A program made the position numbers and the translations under genes. DNA of 32,041 nucleotides from Catajapyx aquilonaris. Taxonomy: Eukaryota. Where the stretch lies: assembly GCA_000934665.2 (NCBI GenBank), contig JYFJ02004481.1:1-32041 (forward strand), in the 5' to 3' direction. The notes beneath the pieces are model-generated. The model searched no databases, was not told where the DNA came from, and saw nothing but the letters and a program-made list of their open reading frames with translations. Below, piece by piece: positions 1,205 to 30,367 of this stretch (within the stretch, counting starts at the first letter, position 1; each line of letters begins with the position of its first letter).

Positions 1205-4200
1205 TTACGAGAGTGCGTCCTTCTCTGTGAGTCGGATTATCTCGAATGGATTTCCACTCTCACTCTGTAAAGCGAACAATAGTTTAAACGTAGGATCTGC
1301 TTCGACTTAATCGTGCGAGGCGAACCTTTCCAGTCATCGCCTTGATCTTGTTGAAGAGGCTGTGACCCCTCGGCTGGGAGTATTGCAGCATGTCCTGCTC
1401 ATCTTCCTCTCCCTCCTGCAAGGCGCAGCTTTCAGCCGGGGGCAGCTCCACGTCCCCGTCATCAGCCTCCATGCCGCCACCAGGCTTCGCTCGGACCGGA
1501 CCAGCCGACTGAACTAGCTTCATGTACTTGTACTCAAGCCGCCTGTGCTGCTTCCAGAAGCAAAGCAGGAGTCCGCACAGTAGACCCGCAATGGCCACAG
1601 ACACTGCTATCATCACCTGCGATGAACCGACATGAGCGTTGCAACTAATCCCAATATCCCAGTGTGTTTACCTGCACCAAGAAGGGCAGCTTGGTGGTGC
1701 ACGGGGCCGAATGTGACCCTCCTTCCTGCTGCTCGTCGTCCTCCGCGATGCAGTGGGTGGTCGGGAGGTAGTGTATGTCCTGCTTTCCATCAACGCACTC
1801 GCCTCTGACAATCCTGTAGTCACCTGGTCCGCAACGTGGGCAGGCCAATGCGGACTCCCACAGGAAATGGAAGTTGCATCCGTCGCATGTGGCATCCGGG
1901 CAGCGGGAAGGTGGCCGGATGGTGCCATTCCCAGGTGATGCCGGGTTGCACCGTAGCGTTATGGTAGTGTCACGACCCTGCGGACATGCTCTTGTCGCTC
2001 TGTGGACAATAGCGACGTTATCACTGTGCAGGTCATGTTAATCCGTGAACTTACGCAGGCGTCGTGAAGAAAAAGTGTAGGTCATGCGGCTGCGGGTCTC
2101 GAGCGAACTCCTCGATGACGGCCATCCCCAGCAGAGTGGTCTCGGGCGTTACACCGACCAGGTGGTCCCCGAGGCTGACGGCCTGCGTTGAAAGCGGGCT
2201 GCCTCCGTCCATGGTCTGCGCCGGAACCACCGTGCTTCGGCACACCAGAGCCTTCACCTGGGGTGGCGATGAAGACGGCCCTCCAGGTGACATCTTTTGA
2301 CGGTGTTGGGGTGACAAGGGCTGTGTCATGCCAGGGGGTCGGTACATGCAGGTTCAGGCCGGGACAATTAGCTACAGTATTGACGCTTGCACTATTACTA
2401 GTAAAATCTATTGTTTTTTTTAAGTGGAAGGTCTCAAAGCGTCTGCAGGGGAAGGGCTATACATGCAAGGTAAGTGATTGAGAATTAGTAATTAATGTAA
2501 TCGCTGTGCCCTCACCACGGATGCCTCCCCTTCCACCTGGTACGACACGTTGTTGGCGCACTGCGACATGTGCATCCCGCACAGGCTGATGTTGAACAGG
2601 TGGAAATACTGCGTGCCAGATGCAGTGAAGAGCAAGCTGCCTTTGATCTGACGGGGCCTGTGGAAGCAACAATTATGACATGTTTATTTTATTTTATTTT
2701 ATTTTATTTTATTTTTAGTTGTACCCCGTTATCTGGCCAATAGGTCATTTCTAGGGGGGTGGATTACCACCAATTGGGGTTTTGGAGCGATGTACATGGA
2801 TATACTTAATTGCTCCAAGGGTAATTAGGAGGGGATGTGCAAAGTGCAAGTGCGCTGTCGTTAATTGGTCATTTTGTGAACTCCCCCGGGTGGCTTAGTC
2901 TATCGGAAATTGCCACCCGAAACGAAGCCAGAGATGGCCCAACTCTGCACGAAAGAAGGTGGGAACAATTATGACATGTATATGTATACACAAAAGGCGA
3001 AGTTTGTTTGTCTGCCAAAAATGGACCAAAAATGGCGGCCGTTTGCCCAAACCTGGCTAAACTCGCATTTTATGTGTTGGAAACGGAGACGATTCATCCT
3101 GAGTGGCAGACCACCCTTCGACCTCTCAGGCCGAGCATGTGGCCAGCACATCAGGATGACAAGGTTGGTCGCGTCTCGACCGCGTCTACTTACCCAGCGA
3201 GAGCTCTCAGATCGTAGACGGACGAGTCCAGGTTGAACCTGCAGTCCGTGGTGCATGTCTGTCCGTCCCAGCTGGTCAGTCCGGGTCCGCAGGCCTTGCA
3301 GGCGTCCTCTCCGTACGGCAGAACAGAACCGGACCCGGAGAGCGACACGGTGTGCGGAGGACACTTGCTGCAGGCGGTCGTGTTGGGGTCGATGAACTGA
3401 CCTGGAGGACAGGTCACGCACCCTCCGGCCTCTCCGGCCTCTGCACCTTGAGGACACGGAAGACACGCCGATGCGCCTCCTTCGACGGTGTTGGTCACGT
3501 TCACGACGAAGATCTTGGCCACGTCCGAGTCCATGGCTGCCCCTGGGCCGATCCCTGGAGAGAGCACGGAAGCTCCGGTATCCAGTTGGTACTTCTGAAA
3601 CGCCCAGCTGAACGTGTAGCTGTCGTTCTCGGTCACCACGTAGCTGAACCTCTGGTACTCCTGCGACCCCGTCCAGCTGTGTATCACCGTCACTCCCTTG
3701 TTCGGCGAACCCTGCGAAAAATAAACCCCAACATGTACCAGATCGGACGAAAGTATACTCTAATTGCACACCGTACCTGCATGAAGACGAACTCGCAGTC
3801 CCTCTGGCACTGCAGCTGGAACGCGAACGAGACGCGTCCGACTTCCAGTGCCCGTCCGTCGACCAGCCCTTCGCGTCCTCTGAACCCGGCCACGTTCAGC
3901 GACAGCACCAGGTACGCCGCGTCCGAGTGACCCCTCATCGAGTGGATGTGGTCGCCAGCCGGCTGCCACCCGTCCGTCGACGTGCATCCGTCTCCTTCGA
4001 CGCTCATGCAGGTCGAGGACATGCTCGGAGGCAACTCGGACCACCACTGGTACTGGTAGCCGTAGTTCGGGGTGGTGGACGGAGGGCACTTCTGACACGA
4101 CCTGACCCCGTCCGAGTAGTGGTCCCTGGGACAGAACTCGCAGCCGGTGGTGCCGTACTGCATCCCCGGGTTGCAAGGCGGACACGACTGCTTCTGTCCA

Positions 4201-6296
4201 GACGGAGGAAGCGGTACGGACGAAGGGTCGTCCTCTCGGCACGTGCGAGGTTCGGCCCACTTGTACATCAGCTGCGTCTGTAACGACAAGAGTTGTACTA
4301 CACGCTGTACCTGCTGCACTGACACTGCCAAAACGTACAGGCAAAGTTCCCCCCTCGGTCCGTGGTTAGTACGAGGTTAGTACGAGGTTAGGTTAGGTTA
4401 GGTTAGGTTAGTACGAGGTTAGTAGGCCTTACGAGGTCAGTACTAGGTTAGGTTAGGTAAGTACGAGGTTAGGTTAGGTTAGTACGAGGTTAGTAGGCCC
4501 TACGAGTTCAGTACGAGGTTAGGTTAGGTTAGTACGAGGTTAGTAGGCCCTACGAGTTCAGTACGAGGTTAGGTTAGGTTAGTACGAGGTTAGTAGGCCC
4601 TACGAGTTCAGTACTAGGTCAGTACGAGGTTAGGTTAGGTTAGGTTAGTACGAGGTTAGGTTAGGTTAGTACGAGGTTAGTAGGCCCTACGAGTTCAGTA
4701 CTAGGTTAGTACGAGGTTAGGTTAGGTTAGGTTAGGTTAGGTTAGGTTAGTACGAGGTTAGTAGGCCCTTACGAGTTCAGTACTAGGTCAGTACGGGTTA
4801 GTACGAGGTTAGTCCGGGTAGTTCGTGGACGCCGCAAAAAAAAGTGAATATATAACCCCTCGGTTTACCCGGATTAGCTCCGGATTGAGTACGTTCACCT
4901 CCACAGCAGAGATAAAGCCCATGGGTTTTAATCAAAGTGACGGCAGCAGGTAGGATTAGTGTGTTCAGGGCGTCCCTGATATCAAAGAAGGTCGCGCGGT
5001 ATACCCTGAGTGAATGTGTACACGGTGCCAAGATTGCCTGATCCCGGATTGCGTGTGGTCGCATAGGAAACCAACATGCGAGGACCCCCCTCGAATGACA
5101 AAATAGTTTAGATTAGAGTGTTAATTGAATTGTCGCGTTCTTTGGGCCCGGGGTCTAATAATTGTGGAGCAGACGAAAGTTGAGAAATGCTGCTTAACCG
5201 ATTGCGCACCACAGTTCGCGCAGCGTCCACGGTTGGAATTACCACTAAGAGAGTATATACCTGATTGTTGGCGTCACATTGCGAGTGCATCTCGTAGTAG
5301 TCGTTGACATTGCACGGAGGCCTCCTGAGACAGTTGGGCGAGCCCGCTGGTGCGAAGTGCGTGTCTGTGGGACACGGCCTGCAGTCCGGCGACCTGGGTC
5401 CGGAAGAGGTGTCCTTGGGACAGTCCGAGCAGAGCCTGGAGCCTCCCTGGCTGTACGTCCCTGGCCTGCAAGGAGTGCAGGAGGAGGCGTAGGCCACCCC
5501 GGAGACCTCGATCCTCCTGATCAGGACGGGCTTGGCCCTGTGGGCGTCCACTCCGATGGTCTTCCACTGCAGGACGTTGATTCCCGTCCGAAGCTGGACA
5601 GTCTGGACACGCCACTTGCCTTCCTCTGTCGGAGGAGGCCACTTGAAGCTCTCGGCCTCCTCGATCGACTGGCACTGCTCGTTTTGCACCTGACCACAAG
5701 GACCGGGTATTTAATTACAATCAAACAAAAAAACAAAGACCTCGCAGGTAAATAACAACAACCCACATTTCAGAAAATCTCCTATTGCTTTACGAAAGCA
5801 ACGGATGAGTGCGCACGACGACAGTTCGCGCATCGTGCAACGCATCGTGTGTAGTGTGCTTACTGCGCTGCACTTATTTCCAACGCTACGCATGGGGGAG
5901 AACAAAAGGGTCGACATTTGCCGCGGTGTAGGCTAAACGTACCATGGCGTACCACGGCGAAAACAAACAAACAAGCCAACAAACAAACACTGAAAAAAAT
6001 AAAAAATAAAAATTCATCTATATAAATACATACTACGTGAACAGAATTATTATTTTGTGGGATGTATATCGGATTACAAGAGAAAAATGCTCTCACTATT
6101 ATTTGCCCCTGAGGTTCTCAAGACTATAAAATTAATGTTTTGCAGGTTTCAACTTACGGAGCAATGAGCTGAAATTGGTCTAATTAAAGGAAGCAACATA
6201 ATCGCAAGTATAAAGAGCTGGGGGGAAAGTGCGTACAGAAAGCGATTTCAAGTGCCTATTTAAAGCAGGGACACACAAAGCAAGGCTATAAAATTA

Positions 6297-6327
<31 letters not shown>

Positions 6328-9300
6328 CCTCTCCGGATTTTTATTAGTGTGGGAGGGGTTACCCCAGCAACATCCAGAGAAACCAGGATTTAAACAGAAC
6401 CCACAGAGAGATCGATCGGATCGATCCGCTCGCCAAAAACCCGTGGCGATCTGATCCATAATTCACATTTTTTTTTTTTTGCTCTTGTTTACATGGCGTT
6501 AAATCCATCTCTGCGGTATTTTATTTTAAAAAACTGTTCATTGGGGGGGAAGAACGCAGCGAACCACACAGCTACACAGATTTATGGCCAGAATATTTGC
6601 ACATTGTATTTACCTGGAAGTTGAATATGACTGACTCGTCGCTGTATTGGTAGCTGTAGCTGAGTGCACCTGGTTTGACCAGCTTGACTGTGTACAGCAG
6701 CACAGAGGCGCATGGACCTCCAGGAGAAACCAAGAACTCTCCTCTTGCTTGCCATCCGAACCTTCAAAATAATTTTAAAAATGGCGATATCAATGCAAAA
6801 TAATAATAATATGAGAATCCTTCAGACTTAAAGGCTAACAGTACATGAACTTTTTAGGAGCTCAGCCGAGTGCTCAGCACAGTTCACGCAGCGTGCACGG
6901 TTAGCATTATCAACGATATCTGGTCAGCTCTCTGTTGCACTTATTTCCAACGCTACGGTTGGGATAGGAAGAAAATGGCCGCCATTTGCGACGTTTCTGA
7001 GGATATGGAACGGACTCCGAGGCTACAAGTCTAGCCCATTACTACCTGCAGTGCACATCTATTGGACTACACAGGGTGTTTCATAATGATTCCCCCACTG
7101 TGAGCTGCGGACACCTAAATCGATCCTCTGGGATGCTGTTCATCACCCCCGAAGTTTCGTTGGAATCATTACGAAACACCTAGTATCTATACAGCCCACA
7201 GGGGGCGACATTACTTGGTGCAGTTGACCTGGGCCAGCTGCCTCCCCAGGGAGGTGAAGGATGACCTGAAGGACTCGACCTGGACGTGGAAGCCAGGCGG
7301 CAGGGTCTCCCACGAATCGAAAATGAGTCCTCCTCCCAATGAGGACGTCCCAGATGGACAGCTCTCGCATTCCAGGGCGCTCAGGTTGAAGAACTTTCCT
7401 GCCTCGCATGAAGTGCCTGCAGAATAAATAAATTAGATTTGAGCCTCGGTCGCACGACCAGACGCTTTCAGATCAACCGACAATGGTCGTGCGACCGAGG
7501 CTCGTAATCGTGAGGGCGTAAACAGGCCTTTGAGAGAGTGTGGCCTAAGTTCGGTTGATGCGACCACTTAAAACAGGACCCCTAACCTGGGGCAACAACG
7601 GGAAAACTTTGGCGCTGCTCCATTTCCGGACAATTTCGGAGGCTCTTTAATTCCTCTCCCGGGGCAAATTAAGCAGTGAGAACCAAAGCTTCGTCGTCGT
7701 TAAAAAAAAGCAGGCTTCAAATCCCACCCAGACTTTTTTCCTCTCCAAAAATGAAAGGAGTCATTAAATGTGGTCGTAAAACACACTGTGAGCAGATCTT
7801 ACAGGATGTCGCATCCGCAAGTTTTCGAAACACCCTGTAAACAACCCAGCTAGAAGTGGCGCCATCACACACGCCAAAAAAAAACATGGAGGAACTTTCC
7901 TGAGACGGAGTTAATCCAATTTGGGAAGCGAGGCAAAGATATTAACAGGGTGCTTGACTTTCCTCCGCGAAAGGATGAAGCCGCTCTTGGGAAAAGGGCT
8001 GTCTCGGAAAATCTATGTGAGCGACATGGTACTACGGCCACACACACAGTGTTGCCAAGTTTTGACGTCCAAAATTATGCCTTAAAACACACACGAACGA
8101 TGGATCGAACTTTCTTCCTCCCAAATGGCCAAAAACTGGCACAAAATCCTCTTCCAAACCCCATAATGAGGTGCCAGCCTCGTTACCTCCTGTTAGGAAC
8201 CTGCTAATGAGCTTGTGATTCAGAAACTCTGCGCTCCACGATTTTGCTCTGTGCGTGCGGCCATTTTGTTCCTCCGCTTCATGCGACTCTTTAATTTTTG
8301 TAGACAGCAACCATGGCTCATCATCCCTTTGAAAATTACCTCGGTGCTCTACTATATCCAGTCCCCCCCCCCCCCTATTCGCAGGGACGTTACACAGGGG
8401 GGTAGAAAAAGATCGGCTTTAATTCCCCAACCGCAGAGCAAAGAGGCGAAACCGCCTATATAGACGGGGAAAGAAAATTTCGGTAGGAGCTTCTAACGTC
8501 ACATAGATAAACCCTCCAGCGCCTAAGACCAGCACACGTAGATTACAGTTCCTCCTCGAATAAAACAAGAGAAAACGACCGCGGTGTTGTTCAATATTCT
8601 AACGCAAAGGTTAAAAACTCTCTCAAAACTTTGTGCAGAGTTGCAACAAGACTTGTCCATAATTTATTGATATACCGTGTATATGCTTCGAGAAAACTTT
8701 CAGAGTTCGGAAATTTAACGAACTATCACTATATACTTTCATATTTTGACGCCCATTAAGAGGACCCCTCTATCATGTCTCAAAAATTTAACGTACTGTC
8801 ACTTTAAGGCAAAGTTGGAGGGGAACAAAATGGCCGACGTTTGTGACGTTGCCAAAAGTCTCTGGAACGAATCTCTGGAAACGTTGTTGTCAGGACAGTG
8901 TGGCTGCGCGAGTGTGGATGCGCACAGCGCACTAGGTTAAAATCATAATATACGACCAAGAGCTAAAGTTATTAGCTCTTGATACGACCAAGTGAGGGGG
9001 TCGAGCCGGGCAGTGTTGCCAAAAAAACAAGTGGAGTGACATTATAAGAGCAAGGATTTCCAACAGTCGGACCACCTTTTTGGGCAATATTTCTTAAGAA
9101 GACACTCACTGCAGTCGTTAACTCTGACAGGTGCATTTGGAGCTCCTCCGACGCACAGTCCCGGTTCAGGCACCGACACCCGCCATCTTCCTCCTTCTTC
9201 GTCACACTCGGTAAATTCGTAGTGGAAGTCGTTCTGGAAAACAAAAGGGAAGTTTCTATATAGTGGCATGGCCCTGACGGTTTATATTGGAGGGAGGGCA

Positions 9301-12300: not shown

Positions 12301-14000
12301 TCGCAATCTGGATCCGTTAATTAACTCGATTCAACTGGATCCGGATTGAAAAATTTTGTGCAAAAAAGTTAAAACAAAAATTTTTGTTCCTTTTATTTTA
12401 TCACACTCAGTCAGTATTGATCCAGACATATACCGGTATATGTTTTGTTGTATAGCCTATAGTCCAAATGGTGCCAAGGGTTTTATAGACACGTCACTAG
12501 ACCTGCTGTTAAGCCACAGGAAGGCCGATTAGAGATAAAGAGTAATCCTTCGAAATGAGAGAAAAAAATTGTAGCCTCGCATCCACTGTTGCACAATTTT
12601 TATGAGAAAATGGTCAGGTGACATTACTTATTTGCAGATTTTTTTTGTGTGTGACGTACTGCAAATTTTTTTTAAAGGGCTGTGCACGTGGTAATTTGCA
12701 TACATATGGAGGAGGTCGCTAGCTGGATCAATAGTCGGGCCTTTTTTTTTACAAAAAAGTTCAGACAATAGCAATAAAAACGGAAGCACTTTAGTATCCG
12801 GAGAGCTCTTTTTTGTAGTGTTGCTGTCACTGTAACAAAGCCTAGCCTTTTTGGAGAGAGAAAAAAGTGCAAGGTACACAATGAATACAATACCGCAGAA
12901 AAAATAATGTGTTGGATGCAGGTTGTACTAACTCAAATTAAAGTGAAAATCTCTGATTATATGTAGTAATTGTACGCTGTGAACAGTCGGAAATTATCCC
13001 TTAATTTGCCTACAACCGGCCACATAATTAAAACTGCAATTTGATCTTAATTGTCACTTAAAGGCGAATTCTACCATATTGTCCAATACGTCGTGCAATT
13101 TTTTGTAGTTATTAAAAAATCGTTTGTAAAAAGTGCACGATTTATTAGCACGCAATAAATACTGTAGTTTCGAGTTATTTATATGCACTGCCTGACTTTC
13201 AAGTTCGCCTTAATTAAAAATGCTATGAACCTGCTACTATTAATTATTGTTGTGTTGACCACTCACGGCCAGCTGTACATATACTGTAATATGACGTAAA
13301 TTATTAAGTATTATTACAAGAATTTGTAGGCTATATATAATTTATTAGCACACAATAAATACACTGCAGTTTCGAGTTATTTTCCTGGGTTTCAAGTTCA
13401 CCTTCAACCTATATTTAAAATGTAATGAACCTGCTACAATTAATAATTGTTGGATTGACCACGCACTCGTCACAGCCGGCTGTACATATGACGTAAATTA
13501 TTAATTAGAATTACTTGCGCAATCCAGCCTTAGGTATACAACCCGATGTACATTGCACAAGTGCGTAATTTATTGTACACACCTCGGTACACTAAAGAAT
13601 TAATGTACGTGCATCAGCAAGTAATGATACCGAATTTTCAGTGTATCTATATATCGCTCAAAAAGGTGGAGACGATTTTGCATTGAAGCCAAATGCAAGT
13701 GTCGCCATCATTTTGAGCTATATAGGTACATGTCGTACCTGCCCTTGTACGTAGGCCTGTATCAGCTGAAACGGTGCAATAATACCGAATTATCCGTGTA
13801 CTTGACATGTACATTATTTTTACAAGTTACGTAACCCAATCTTGACAGATGGTACTGCTGTACCCCCCATAAGAAGACACGTGCTGGGTACGTACCGCCT
13901 GACACGTCGGCGCCTGGTCCCCACCTCCGTACACCATGCACTGCACCAGGACCAGCACCGCGACGACCCTCATCGTGGTCACAACCGTCGTACCACTCAT
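1205..14000 (-). CDS. ELAPOR: Endosome/lysosome-associated apoptosis and autophagy regulator family protein (ELAPOR1/2, KIAA1324/EIG121-like, UPF0577), 12 coding exons, about 1016 aa
   Basis: Exons in transcript order: 14000-13896, 9233-9110, 7416-7215, 6761-6614, 5689-5261, 4277-3777, 3711-3194, 2657-2516, 2257-2055, 1999-1672, 1616-1326, 1264-1205. All introns are GT-AG, phases join without frameshift, total 3051 nt. The protein has a signal peptide (MRVVAVLVLVQCMVYG), DFHYEFTECD..GGRWRVSVP, Cys-rich repeats (GVAYASSCTPCRPGTY, CPPCNPG), TQLMYKWAEP, an MRH-like region (CPDATCDGCNFHFLWES..ACP), a TM helix (VMIAVSVAIAGLLCGLLLCFW) and the tail LEYKYMKLV...ELPPAESCALQEGE. These match the KIAA1324 family as I remember it. 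Start is ATG 14000 or the in-frame ATG 13973. Confidence 0.93.
2684..2716 (+). repeat. (ATTTT)n microsatellite
   Basis: Visible pentanucleotide tract in ELAPOR intron 7. Confidence 0.85.
4364..4813 (+). repeat. Interstitial telomere-like satellite: (TTAGG)n mixed with TTAGTACGAGG, with a 50-bp higher-order unit
   Basis: Directly visible. The 50-bp unit GTACGAGGTTAGGTTAGGTTAGTACGAGGTTAGTAGGCCCTACGAGTTCA starts at 4461, 4511 and 4561. Lies in ELAPOR intron 5. Confidence 0.92.
5821..5921 (+). repeat. Dispersed repeat of about 100 bp, copy A
   Basis: Shares TGCACTTATTTCCAACGCTACG (22 bp identical, 5869-5890 and 6936-6957) and an ACAGTTC(G/A)CGCA start with the copy near 6879-6989. Fragments also at about 5206-5244 and 8820-8850. 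Confidence 0.65.
6303..6333 (+). repeat. (TC)n microsatellite
   Basis: Visible TCTCTC tract. Confidence 0.9.
6879..6989 (+). repeat. Dispersed repeat of about 100 bp, copy B
   Basis: Homologous to 5821-5921 as described for copy A. Confidence 0.65.
7441..7503. repeat. Perfect 20-bp inverted repeat with 23-nt loop
   Basis: GAGCCTCGGTCGCACGACCA (7441-7460) and TGGTCGTGCGACCGAGGCTC (7484-7503). Confidence 0.9.
9874..10275 (+). repeat. Degenerate tandem repeat, three copies of about 120-145 bp
   Basis: Recurring blocks ATGC(G/A)TCAAAAT, ACATTG, AAATTTCATGTA and TTTTGGCAACAG(T/C)TG; copies begin near 9874, 10022 and 10144. Confidence 0.8.
13141..13504 (+). repeat. Diverged tandem duplication, two copies of about 165 bp
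   Basis: 13141-13307 versus 13342-13504, both running TTTATTAGCAC.CAATAAATAC ... TTTCGAGTTATTT ... ATGAACCTGCTAC ... ATGACGTAAATTATTAA. Confidence 0.8.
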
Positions 14001-14005
14001 TCCAT
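13997..14005 (-). promoter_or_regulatory. Minimal uORF (ATG GAA TGA) overlapping the first in-frame ELAPOR ATG
   Basis: The minus strand reads GCC ATG GAA TGA GTG. The uATG has a GCCATGG context and its stop overlaps the ATG at 14000. Confidence 0.45.
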
Positions 14006-14255
14006 GGCCTGCAGCAGCAACTTCCTTCGTCTGATGAAGCCTCCTCTCAACTGCCTCTGGTGACCATCGCGGTGTCTCTTTTTGGTCGTGCTTATCACCC
14101 AGACTCTCTCTCTCTCTGCAACCCCCTCCCCCAGCACCAACCAACCAGCCAACTCTCCAACCCTCCCTAAAAGTATAGGTCTTGATATCGACCAGGTCGA
14201 CGTCAGATCAAAGCTGAGCATGCGGAGAAGCGGGAACACCTTTTTGGAGGGTTCA

Positions 14256-14289
14256 TATAAACAGGGTGTGGGGGGGTTGTCCTAGTAAC
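14256..14289 (+). promoter_or_regulatory. RFX X-box (GTTGTCCTAGTAAC, 14276-14289) with adjacent forkhead/TATA-like site (TATAAACA, 14256-14263) in the ELAPOR/CFAP276 divergent promoter
   Basis: 14-bp imperfect palindrome fitting GTTNYY-NN-RRNAAC, about 150 bp upstream of the ATG of a ciliary gene. ATAAACA fits the forkhead core RYAAAYA. Confidence 0.6.
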
Positions 14290-14435
14290 CGCGGAGTACA
14301 TTTCTCAACAGAGAGGACTTGGAAAATTTGGAATAGATTTGCACGGGTTCAAAATTTAGGTGCTTTTTTTGTGTTCCCCCCCACCCCACACGGGAGGGTC
14401 AAAGGTCGTGAGGTGGCTGCGGGCCGAGGTCAAAC

Positions 14436-14789
14436 ATGCCGCTACTATGCCAGCACTCGATGATGGCCATGCAGGTGCTCGCCGACACCTTTTACGGCAC
14501 CAGGCCCAAACACAAGGTAAGGCCACCTGAAATTTACATTATTGTTACCAACAACAACAATATTAATGATAAAATATAATGTAATTAAAATTAAATGATA
14601 AATATATTAAATGCTACCATGCAAGTGCAGGTAGAATGGATTTTATCTAGCATATAATAAATCAGGTAGTTTGTTGGTATGTACCGTATGACATATTAAC
14701 TGAGGTAAGGTCACCTGAAATTGACATTGTCAACAATATTATTATTAATAAAATAAAAATAAAATAAAAATATTTGAATAACTAATTCA

Positions 14790-14852
<63 letters not shown>

Positions 14853-16036
14853 TTCTACCATGCAAGTGCAAGTTGAATGAATTTTATCTTGCATATAATT
14901 AATATATAAAGCAGAAGCTTTGTTGGTATGTATACCATATAATCATGGCTACAATTATTAATAAAATAAATAACTGAAATATGAAGTAAATAAATAAATA
15001 ATCTATTAAATATATAAACAATATATGAAAAAATACTATATTAATTAAATAAGTAATATATAACATAAATAAATAAAATTATATCATGCAAATGCTTCAT
15101 TATCTTACATATACTATAAAGCAGAAAGTTTGTTGGTATGTCGCAGCTACCTATCTCACTTTCTGGCTACTGAGGGTGATGAAACTTTTTAATAAAATAA
15201 AAATCCATTCAACCTGCATTTGTAGTGTATGTAGCCAGTACTCACAATGCAATTATTATGCATGTCAGGATTGGTCACAGTTCTGGCAGTGTTGCAGCAC
15301 TTACAAATTACTGTGCGATTGACATGGCCATTGCATTAATATGCGTACTTATCAGACATTGCAAATAGGCGTGTAATTTTAGCGAGGTGCTAAGCGCTGT
15401 TCAAAAAAATGGGACGGTACGTGCAGTGCTGGTGGAATAACCAGTGTGCATTTGAATGTCGAATGGCAATTATCTGATTTCATCCAACCACACTCCTCAT
15501 TGCAGTTTGTCAGAGCGAACCGACGCTGGAACAAGATTAAGGATGCGGAGAGGGCAAAGTTCAAGGCCCTGGCATGCAGGTGCCCTACCAACCCCTGGGA
15601 CAGACTGGACAACCACTGGACAGCATGCAGCGCACCAAAAACCGTCTTCTTCACCCAGCCTCGACCACACGACTACCTCGACTTTGCTCTCATGTCCAGC
15701 TACTCCCAGACTGAGGACCTCTTCGTCCCCAAGCAGCAGTTCTCCATCCAGCCAGTCACCCTTGGCCTGCCTCGAGAAGGGTTAGTCCAACATCCCGGTC
15801 CATCCTGTTGCTCTTTGTAACATGCTGTCTTTCCTTGTTACAGGATGATATGCAATAAGGAGCTCCCGAAGCCTCCGCCCATACCGGAACCGCCGTTCAG
15901 CCACCCAATGAGGCATGCTCCGCCGTGCCCCAAGAAGAGCCCCCACAGCATTAAGCTGGCCATCGAGTCCCACCACAGCTCCCTCACCAACAGGGGGTAC
16001 TCCAGGAAGCCTGACGGAGGGTTCTTCATCACATAA
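14436..16036 (+). CDS. CFAP276: CFAP276/C1orf194-like ciliary microtubule inner protein, 3 exons, 182 aa
   Basis: Exons 14436-14516 (ends AAG|gtaagg, phase 0), 15506-15780 (ttgcag|TTT ... GG|gttagt) and 15844-16036 (ttacag|G ATG ... TAA). Spliced motifs PWDRL...[20 protein letters not shown] and the C-terminus [34 protein letters not shown] parallel human C1orf194 as recalled (PWSRL...[48 protein letters not shown]). Exon 1 is the least certain part. Confidence 0.88.
14515..15141 (+). repeat. Tandem duplication of the 5' part of CFAP276 intron 1 (two copies plus a partial third) with an (AAT)n microsatellite at about 14793-14851
   Basis: AGGTAAGG(C/T)CACCTGAAATT at 14515 and 14703, CTACCATGCAAGTGCA in both copies, TTTGTTGGTATGT three times. 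Confidence 0.8.
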
Positions 16037-16131
16037 GAACCAAGAGGAGCCCTGGAAAATCCTCGTTAGCCCCCTTGATATCAAGGCATTACTGGAAAAG
16101 CACATCAAAATTCATTATCGTGATCACTGCC

Positions 16132-16137
16132 AATAAA
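16132..16137 (+). terminator. Probable polyadenylation signal of CFAP276
   Basis: AATAAA about 95 nt after the stop codon, followed by ATTAAA at 16143. Confidence 0.55.
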
Positions 16138-16331
16138 CACACATTAAATAGGCAAACCGGCTATGGATAATTTAATAAGACGGAAACAAGTTGCAAGCCA
16201 CAAGTACGGCAATCCAATCTTTCTTTCAGGGAAACATTTGGTCTTGGCGTAGGATTTTCAACGTACTTCCATTACACAATGTGTACATTACAGAATGATT
16301 CGGCTACACACAGAAGGTAGTGATCAGACAT

Positions 16332-16569
16332 TGCTATCCTTGTGAGGATTTTTTTCGCTTGTTTCCTATCCTTGTGAGGACCGAAAACCTTACGAGGACT
16401 TTTTCAGGCCCTCATAAGGTACACAGTCCTCACAAGGATGGCGGAAAATCAAACCAAGACCTCCTTTTTACTGTGAAAAAATAGGTCACCAAAATTTCGT
16501 GTGTATTTTGTAGGTTAGGTTAGGTTAGTTTTAAATTTTTATTTTTGCCAGACCCTCACAAGGATAGCA
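16332..16569. mobile_element. MITE-like non-autonomous DNA transposon with 16-bp perfect inverted repeats and internal TTAGG tract
   Basis: TGCTATCCTTGTGAGG (16332-16347) and CCTCACAAGGATAGCA (16554-16569). Further internal copies of the motif at about 16365 and 16427, three TTAGG-type units near 16511-16528, and a TG-rich right flank. Confidence 0.7.

Positions 16570-18114: not shown

Positions 18115-30367
<12,253 letters not shown>

Follow-up and report, generated by a model that had tools for sequence, protein, structure and literature searches.

The ELAPOR and CFAP276 genes of the window

Contig JYFJ02004481.1 of Catajapyx aquilonaris (assembly GCA_000934665.2) was analysed over its full length of 32,041 nucleotides, hereafter called the window. 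We read three genes in it: a gene of the ELAPOR (KIAA1324/EIG121) family of endosome/lysosome receptors on the minus strand, a CFAP276 (C1orf194) gene on the plus strand and a KDM5-type demethylase gene on the minus strand (Table 1). Exons are G+C-rich and introns A+T-rich. The first two genes stand head to head: the ATG codons of ELAPOR (14000) and CFAP276 (14436) point away from each other with 435 bp between them, so that, measured from ATG to ATG, the divergent genes are separated by less than 1 kb. The original prediction, which was drawn from the letters of this DNA, had placed the two starts about 435 bp apart in this orientation, and the gene models on both strands bear it out. The layout does not depend on the first exon predicted for CFAP276, since exon 2, itself no more than 1.5 kb away from the start codon of ELAPOR, requires an upstream exon with an ATG.

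Table 1. Features of the window, and metagenome loci (L numbers) with a FAM120A/asteroid-type gene head to head with CFAP276
Feature	Sequence	Position	Strand	Description
ELAPOR exon 1	window	13896..14000	-	ATG 14000, 35 codons, signal-peptide-like, end ...PTCQA, donor GTACGT
ELAPOR remainder	window	1284..9233	-	ten coding blocks, stop near 1284
ELAPOR blocks, part 1	window	~9233-9108, 7414-7214, 6763-6611, 5692-5261, 4280-3738	-	
ELAPOR blocks, part 2	window	~3720-3196, 2653-2504, 2257-2057, 1998-1660, 1649-1341	-	
Spacer between start codons	window	14001..14435		435 bp, 53% G+C, CpG observed/expected 0.53
X-box-like palindrome GTTGTCCTAGTAAC, candidate RFX site	window	14276..14289		160 bp (motif start) upstream of CFAP276 ATG, 276 bp from ELAPOR ATG
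CFAP276 exon 1, predicted	window	14436..14516	+	27 codons, donor GTAAGG, weak F.G homology
CFAP276 exon 2, DUF3695 core	window	15506..15780	+	Pfam PF12494 and PDB CFAP276 chains
CFAP276 exon 3, conserved C-terminus and stop	window	15844..16036	+	PDB CFAP276 chains, C-terminal motif
KDM5/Lid-type histone demethylase, complete-looking	window	18115..30367	-	Pfam JmjN, ARID, JmjC, KDM5_C-hel, PLU-1 and PHD on open reading frames
FAM120A/asteroid-type head-to-head locus	L019	3706-4898		X-box GTTGCTATAGAAAC between genes
FAM120A/asteroid-type head-to-head locus	L013	3070-4230		X-box GTTGCTATAGAAAC between genes
FAM120A/asteroid-type head-to-head locus	L047	11994-13154		X-box GTTGCTATAGAAAC between genes

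The minus-strand gene is, judging by its domains, a complete member of the ELAPOR family. Seven of the 11 minus-strand open reading frames (ORFs) tested matched ELAPOR1-like Pfam families, five of them above the curated cut-off; the families are GBD_ELAPOR1, GBD_ELAPOR1-like_3rd, TNFR_ELAPOR1_6th, MRH_ELAPOR1_9th and ELAPOR1_C, and the galactose-binding-like domains, TNFR-like repeats, MRH domain and C-terminal domain are complete and in order. A 228-residue ORF (3693-4376) used as query gave 77 ELAPOR-family homologues, all with the ELAPOR Pfam domain set; the named ones are called ELAPOR family member 1 or 2, KIAA1324(-like) or 'MRH domain-containing protein'. The best matches are malacostracan, at 63% identity for Armadillidium, about 60% for Halocaridina, Petrolisthes and others, and 52% for krill; insects, a barnacle and spiders rank next, ahead of vertebrate ELAPOR2 and ELAPOR1. 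Three crustacean ELAPOR proteins are collinear in tblastn with the ten coding blocks from residue 26 to 956/988, running from 9233 down to 1365 in the window. The block coordinates in Table 1 are the ends of tblastn blocks, with splice sites unrefined. The ATG at 14000 is the first in-frame ATG of the gene, and by eye we noted that the N-terminus encoded by exon 1 is hydrophobic, as is a stretch of ORF 1284-1667. The Pfam families, the 77 homologues and the collinear crustacean proteins thus agree with the ELAPOR identity originally proposed, and the malacostracan best matches agree with the likely arthropod origin proposed along with it. The equation with human ELAPOR1 holds at the level of the family; the invertebrate gene is a single-copy pro-orthologue of both ELAPOR1 and ELAPOR2, and the label that NCBI gives to arthropod ELAPOR proteins is 'family member 2-like'.

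The plus-strand gene is, from the matches of its second and third exons, a divergent CFAP276. Joined by script, the three exons give a 549-nt coding sequence of 182 codons with no internal stop; the introns measure 989 and 63 nt, with donors GTAAGG and GTTAGT and AG at both 3' ends, and an AATAAA follows at 16132, about 100 nt past the stop at 16036. Exon 2 matches Pfam DUF3695 (PF12494) with E=2e-10 and 40.9 bits against a cut-off of 27. Both exons 2 and 3 match the solved CFAP276 chains of axonemal doublet microtubules from sea urchin, human, mouse and cattle. For exon 3 this concerns all five distinct CFAP276 sequences of the PDB (3.2e-10 to 6.7e-7), the best being sea-urchin 8snb_3R (3.2e-10), with human 7ung_q at 4.1e-8; for exon 2, two of the PDB CFAP276 sequences fall below 1e-3, including 8snb_3R at 1.8e-5, to which about 21 of 61 residues are identical by our own count. 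The CFAP276/C1orf194 assignment of the original prediction is therefore upheld by PF12494 and by the solved chains. When exon 2 was used as a query for homologues, no match was found among longer proteins; an all-against-all HMMER search returned two matches, a real CFAP276-like protein (P0004) and a repeat artefact (P0005).

The two ends of this protein differ in conservation. Exon 3 bears the C-terminal motif TN-x-G[YF]SRK-x-DGG-F[FY], two to three residues before the stop, as do all 67 metagenome loci described below. The N-terminal motif RDPYPFP..ENDDNF had no match anywhere in 13000-16500, and exon 1 is predicted from its ATG, from the strength of its donor and from a weak F.G similarity to the first exons of other CFAP276 genes. 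We read the missing motif as probable lineage-specific divergence and see in it no ground for excluding the gene from CFAP276. An alternative first exon near 15410 (ATG, then GTACGT) was rejected for a phase mismatched with the acceptor of exon 2. In a comparison with 35 metagenome loci, RDPYPFP..ENDDNF is kept from animals to the protist-looking contigs L059 and L061 and lost in the CFAP276 of the window; the intron found directly ahead of the ...SHH..TN.GYSRK exon in most genomic loci is missing from it as well. Within intron 1 (989 nt) we noted by eye an (AAT)n microsatellite (about 14798-14850) as well as three copies of an element of about 90 nt (…ccatgcaagtgca…tttgttggtatgt…) near 14615, 14850 and 15080 (window 14600-15140).

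The pair in vertebrates and in metagenome loci

The vertebrate pair was known from the literature. Row 377 of Table S5 in Dávila López et al. (2010, PLoS One) gives C1orf194/KIAA1324 as a divergent pair with an intergenic distance of 80 nt in human, and with Danio rerio, Homo sapiens and Mus musculus as its species; the table, entitled 'Potential bidirectional promoters', collects divergently transcribed neighbours that occur in human and one or more further species with under 1000 nt between them. The human genes are thus divergent neighbours, as stated in the original prediction, which also left open whether the pair had been described. The vertebrate pair had been, though only as one line of a large table. 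Consistently, the human gene order has been given as WDR47, TAF13, TMEM167B, CFAP276, ELAPOR1 (PMC9582330), and kiaa1324 and c1orf194 lie on one bacterial artificial chromosome of Solea (PMC7915175). What we add to the printed record is the extension of the pair to the window species and to another invertebrate, together with an X-box upstream of CFAP276 that recurs across lineages; ELAPOR-CFAP276 may already figure among the pairs in the supplement of Irimia et al. (2012, Genome Res).

Other lineages were sampled through CFAP276 in public metagenome contigs. A degenerate DNA pattern, back-translated from the C-terminal motif of CFAP276, found 67 metagenome loci, all of which encode the last exon of the gene. 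The same pattern had no match in 596 Gb of prokaryote genomes and none in IMG/VR, so the 67 matches are not due to chance. A profile-based scan of metagenomes for loci related to the window found no relative.

Two of these loci carry the pair. In L028 (3142 bp), CFAP276 starts with an ATG at 2034 and, 392 bp away on the opposite strand, there is an ATG-initiated signal-peptide exon that ends in ...PTCLP/GTGAGT (exon/intron). L028 is also the one locus among the 67 to encode ELAPOR exon 2, on that same opposite strand and 78% identical to that of the window over 36 amino acids (E=1.6e-16); the boundaries of exons 1 and 2 agree between window and L028 at both intron positions. L022 (2773 bp) has a similar exon, …PTCRP/GTGAGT, 291 bp from the CFAP276 ATG, and its contig ends before a possible ELAPOR exon 2. 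In the window, L028 and L022 alike, ELAPOR exon 1 closes with a cysteine and two further residues, in phase 0. The two metagenome loci are kin, with 23 of 26 residues of CFAP276 exon 1 identical. A relaxed search for an ELAPOR-type exon in the 18 loci that have 250 bp or more of upstream sequence retrieved only these two and a dissimilar candidate in L023.

How far removed from the window are these loci? CFAP276 exon 2 of L028 matches the sea-urchin chain with E=2.8e-24 (43 of 69 residues identical, own count) and is 34% identical to that of the window. Going by its sequence, L028 is distant from the window species, and the recurrent pair involves at least two very different invertebrate lineages of CFAP276. 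The same two genes in the same orientation are therefore found in human, mouse and zebrafish, from the literature, and in L028 and L022, from our own search.

Several further observations concern CFAP276 in the metagenome loci. Six loci carry its last exon twice, the copies 0.6-1.5 kb from each other and oriented alike (L045 1431-2145, L062 2413-4026, L009, L034, L055 and L066), which could be tandem duplications or alternative last exons. In L059 (2573-3082) and L061 (1229-1738), records of 22.5 and 118 kb, the gene runs from exon 1 to the C-terminus within about 0.5 kb. On the far side of CFAP276 in the window, the KDM5-type gene is tail to tail with it, about 2 kb from its stop; this gene is context and lies outside the pair, and KDM5 adjoins CFAP276 in none of the 67 loci. 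An N in the sequence near 30.6 kb gives X in translations upstream of the first KDM5-type exon.

The spacer and its X-box

The RFX sites of ciliary genes (bound by DAF-19, dRfx and RFX2/3) are known as X-boxes and are palindromes of the GTTGYC-N2-RGYAAC type. The candidate of this kind in the spacer coincides with the only region that the window, L022 and L028 have in common when their spacers are aligned; L022 and L028 carry the half-site GTTGTCATGG there. For a wider comparison, 19 loci including the window, each with 200 bp or more of sequence preceding the CFAP276 ATG, were merged at 85% identity or more into 15 upstream groups. A full X-box is present within 200 bp upstream of the CFAP276 ATG in nine of these 15 lineages, as against 94 of 1325 background windows of 200 bp (7.1%; binomial P=1.5e-7). 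It lies 45-160 bp upstream of the ATG, mostly 69-108 bp. The candidate X-box would be in keeping with RFX control of a motile-cilium gene. In the protist-looking L059 and L061, a near-perfect palindromic X-box (GTTTCCATGGGAAC) stands 69 bp upstream of CFAP276. At 14100-14160, on the ELAPOR side, the spacer of the window contains a (CT)n run together with a C-rich tract (…ctctctctctctgcaaccccctcccccagcaccaaccaaccagcc…), which may belong to the core promoter of ELAPOR or to its 5' untranslated region.

Does the X-box belong to the pair or to CFAP276? The site GTTGCTATAGAAAC is also present in L013, L019 and L047, where the divergent neighbour of CFAP276 is a FAM120/asteroid-like gene, and we therefore assign the X-box to CFAP276 and not to the pair. 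This bears on the possibility of true co-regulation, in which one bidirectional, RFX-dependent promoter would drive both genes and ELAPOR would take part in the cilia programme. A single X-box between the start codons of the window, 276 bp from one and 160 bp from the other, could be expected of such a promoter. However, the X-box is always on the CFAP276 side, and it is equally present beside the FAM120/asteroid-like gene.

Expression in mammals points away from co-regulation as well. In the available excerpts of the papers concerned, the company of ELAPOR1 is made up of secretory and glandular markers (TFF3, AGR2, SCGB1A1, FOXA2). Among ovarian tumour single cells, KIAA1324 marks a TFF3/PIGR/AGR2/XBP1 cluster, apart from the FOXJ1/RSPH1 ciliated cluster (excerpt of PMC6211742); an airway-culture preprint, as excerpted, groups ELAPOR1 with TFF3 and SCGB1A1; and the accessible text of a uterine atlas has ELAPOR1 as a marker of glandular epithelium, apart from FOXJ1 ciliated cells. 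The literature that we found on ELAPOR1 with cilia or RFX consists only of marker and differential-expression lists, and papers that mention both KIAA1324 and RFX6 are likewise differential-expression lists only. The original prediction had tied ELAPOR to the motile-cilia programme; as far as these excerpts go, mammalian ELAPOR1 is found in secretory and glandular cells and not in FOXJ1-positive ciliated cells, and the tie is left unsupported. Co-regulation of the two genes by one RFX promoter seems to us very unlikely.

There is a bolder variant of this idea. RFX factors have roles in secretory cells, and the spacer might be an RFX element of bilaterian age that works in both directions, with cilia-type RFX partners acting on CFAP276 and other RFX factors acting on ELAPOR in secretory or endocrine cells; a single conserved site would then contribute to the choice between ciliated and secretory programmes, and this role would have kept the pair together. 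We give this scenario little credence.

Age and retention of the pair

The explanation that we favour, with moderate confidence, is that ELAPOR and CFAP276 form a real divergent pair that most likely goes back at least to the protostome-deuterostome ancestor and survives in vertebrates as ELAPOR1-CFAP276, and that the close packing of two promoters would account for its retention. What strengthens the case for this age is that one combination recurs, with ELAPOR as the divergent partner of CFAP276 across less than 0.5 kb: it is seen in human with 80 nt, in the window with 435 bp, in L028 with 392 bp and in L022 with 291 bp. As to mechanism, the spacer of 0.3-0.45 kb would hold the cilia-type promoter that CFAP276 has for itself, with the candidate RFX X-box, and ELAPOR would start from the opposite edge of the same short region under a programme of its own. 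With two promoters within a few hundred bases, few breakpoints would be harmless, and the pair would persist. None of this implies that the ELAPOR and CFAP276 proteins work together.

A competing possibility is that the adjacency arose independently in the lineage of the window species (with L028) and in vertebrates. Both families are placed in putative ancestral linkage group 6, for the bilaterian node, Lottia, Capitella and human, in the available part of supplementary file 7 of Simakov et al. (2013). These linkage groups describe chromosome-scale linkage, not adjacency, and membership of one ancestral group raises the odds of accidental adjacency after shuffling; besides, very many gene pairs were scanned at the first stage of this work. 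Against coincidence, the same orientation and a spacer below 0.5 kb occur in four cases (human, window, L028, L022), which include at least two very divergent invertebrate lineages of CFAP276. We regard independent origin as improbable, and common ancestry of the arrangement as quite likely.

A number of points nevertheless weigh against an ancient pair. One adjacency shared by two genomes can be chance if gene order shuffles within a conserved linkage group. L028 and L022 may come from another protostome, even another crustacean, rather than from a third independent branch: ELAPOR exon 2 of L028 has the GGRWRVSVP form, which is found in arthropods and a mollusc, and identity in exon 2 does not discriminate between taxa; homologue searches made to place L028 gave a single JGI protein and, in the Atlas, no match. 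In L013, L019 and L047 the place of the divergent neighbour, some 0.3 kb upstream of CFAP276, is taken not by ELAPOR but by the FAM120/asteroid-like gene, an ORF of 274-277 residues with weak XPG_I matches, whose nearest Atlas clusters are of the FAM120A/asteroid type. No recognisable ELAPOR exon was found in 11 of the 15 upstream groups, most of which have flanks below 2 kb (3.2 kb in L045), and 150 ORFs that lie upstream of the gene in 11 other loci had no Pfam match. In Nematostella, the two families fall in different linkage groups, Nv_11 and Nv_6/9, in the part of the data of Simakov et al. (2013) at hand. The 64-species set of Dávila López et al. (2010), as far as its accessible tables go, reports the pair in three vertebrates only, and not in Daphnia, flies, mosquitoes, Ciona or Trichoplax; this absence from the invertebrates is weak evidence, because CFAP276 is small and often unannotated. 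Lastly, X-boxes are not enriched across the window, where four sites give eight strand-matches against 5.6 expected and 25 of 100 shuffles reach eight. The X-box of the window is thus not significant by itself, and its weight comes only from the cross-lineage test.

Some of these points would also suit a neutral leftover, that is, an ancestral pair that nothing holds together, in which a short spacer is a small target for breakpoints, so that the pair is kept in some lineages and lost in others. It is absent or replaced in L013, L019 and L047; its members are in different linkage groups in the Nematostella data just cited; the spacers have no sequence in common besides the X-box; and, in the mammalian excerpts above, ELAPOR1 and CFAP276 are expressed in different cell types. 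However, the spacing is tight in every case (80 nt, 291, 392 and 435 bp), and Irimia et al. (2012), in the available text, report an excess of the 5'-5' orientation and of short spacers among conserved pairs beyond a control set, which argues for constraint on these pairs as a class. We consider a neutral leftover rather unlikely.

On balance, ELAPOR and CFAP276 probably constitute a conserved bidirectional pair of bilaterian age, an ordinary member of the class of 5'-5' pairs with short spacers to which Dávila López et al. (2010) and Irimia et al. (2012) have drawn attention. The linkage since the bilaterian ancestor put forward in the original prediction is plausible in the light of the pair in L028 and L022 and of linkage group 6, within the portion of that dataset available; as a universal arrangement it does not stand, given L013, L019 and L047 and, in the same portion, Nematostella. 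If the pair is truly of bilaterian age, it is one of the few hundred gene neighbourhoods to have lasted for more than 500 million years, which are the main material on how promoter architecture constrains genome rearrangement. CFAP276 (C1orf194) has been reported as a Charcot-Marie-Tooth gene (cited in PMC9582330), and variants or epigenetic changes in the tiny common spacer could affect both CFAP276 and ELAPOR1, a receptor of secretory cells. The conserved X-box, for its part, offers a testable handle on the regulation of CFAP276 in animals with few motile cilia, such as crustaceans.

Three known systems invite comparison. With the RFX/X-box promoters of ciliary genes, CFAP276, a motile-cilium gene, shares a palindromic site at 45-160 bp before its ATG in the nine lineages counted above; the candidate site of the window differs in standing within a spacer common with a non-ciliary gene. 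Ancient microsyntenic pairs with bidirectional promoters, of the HSPD1-HSPE1 type (Irimia et al. 2012; Dávila López et al. 2010), are alike in their 5'-5' orientation, very short spacer and conservation across distant animals. However, HSPD1 and HSPE1 are functionally linked and co-expressed, whereas we know of no functional link or co-expression for ELAPOR and CFAP276, and the mammalian papers, in the excerpts used here, point to different cell types. The human CFAP276-ELAPOR1 pair at 1p13.3 is the third. The pair does not figure outside vertebrates in the accessible tables of Dávila López et al. (2010); compared with its human counterpart, the ELAPOR gene of the window is unduplicated and its CFAP276 has a strongly diverged N-terminus, and the two pairs are alike in their gene families, in their divergent transcription and in a spacer well below 1 kb.

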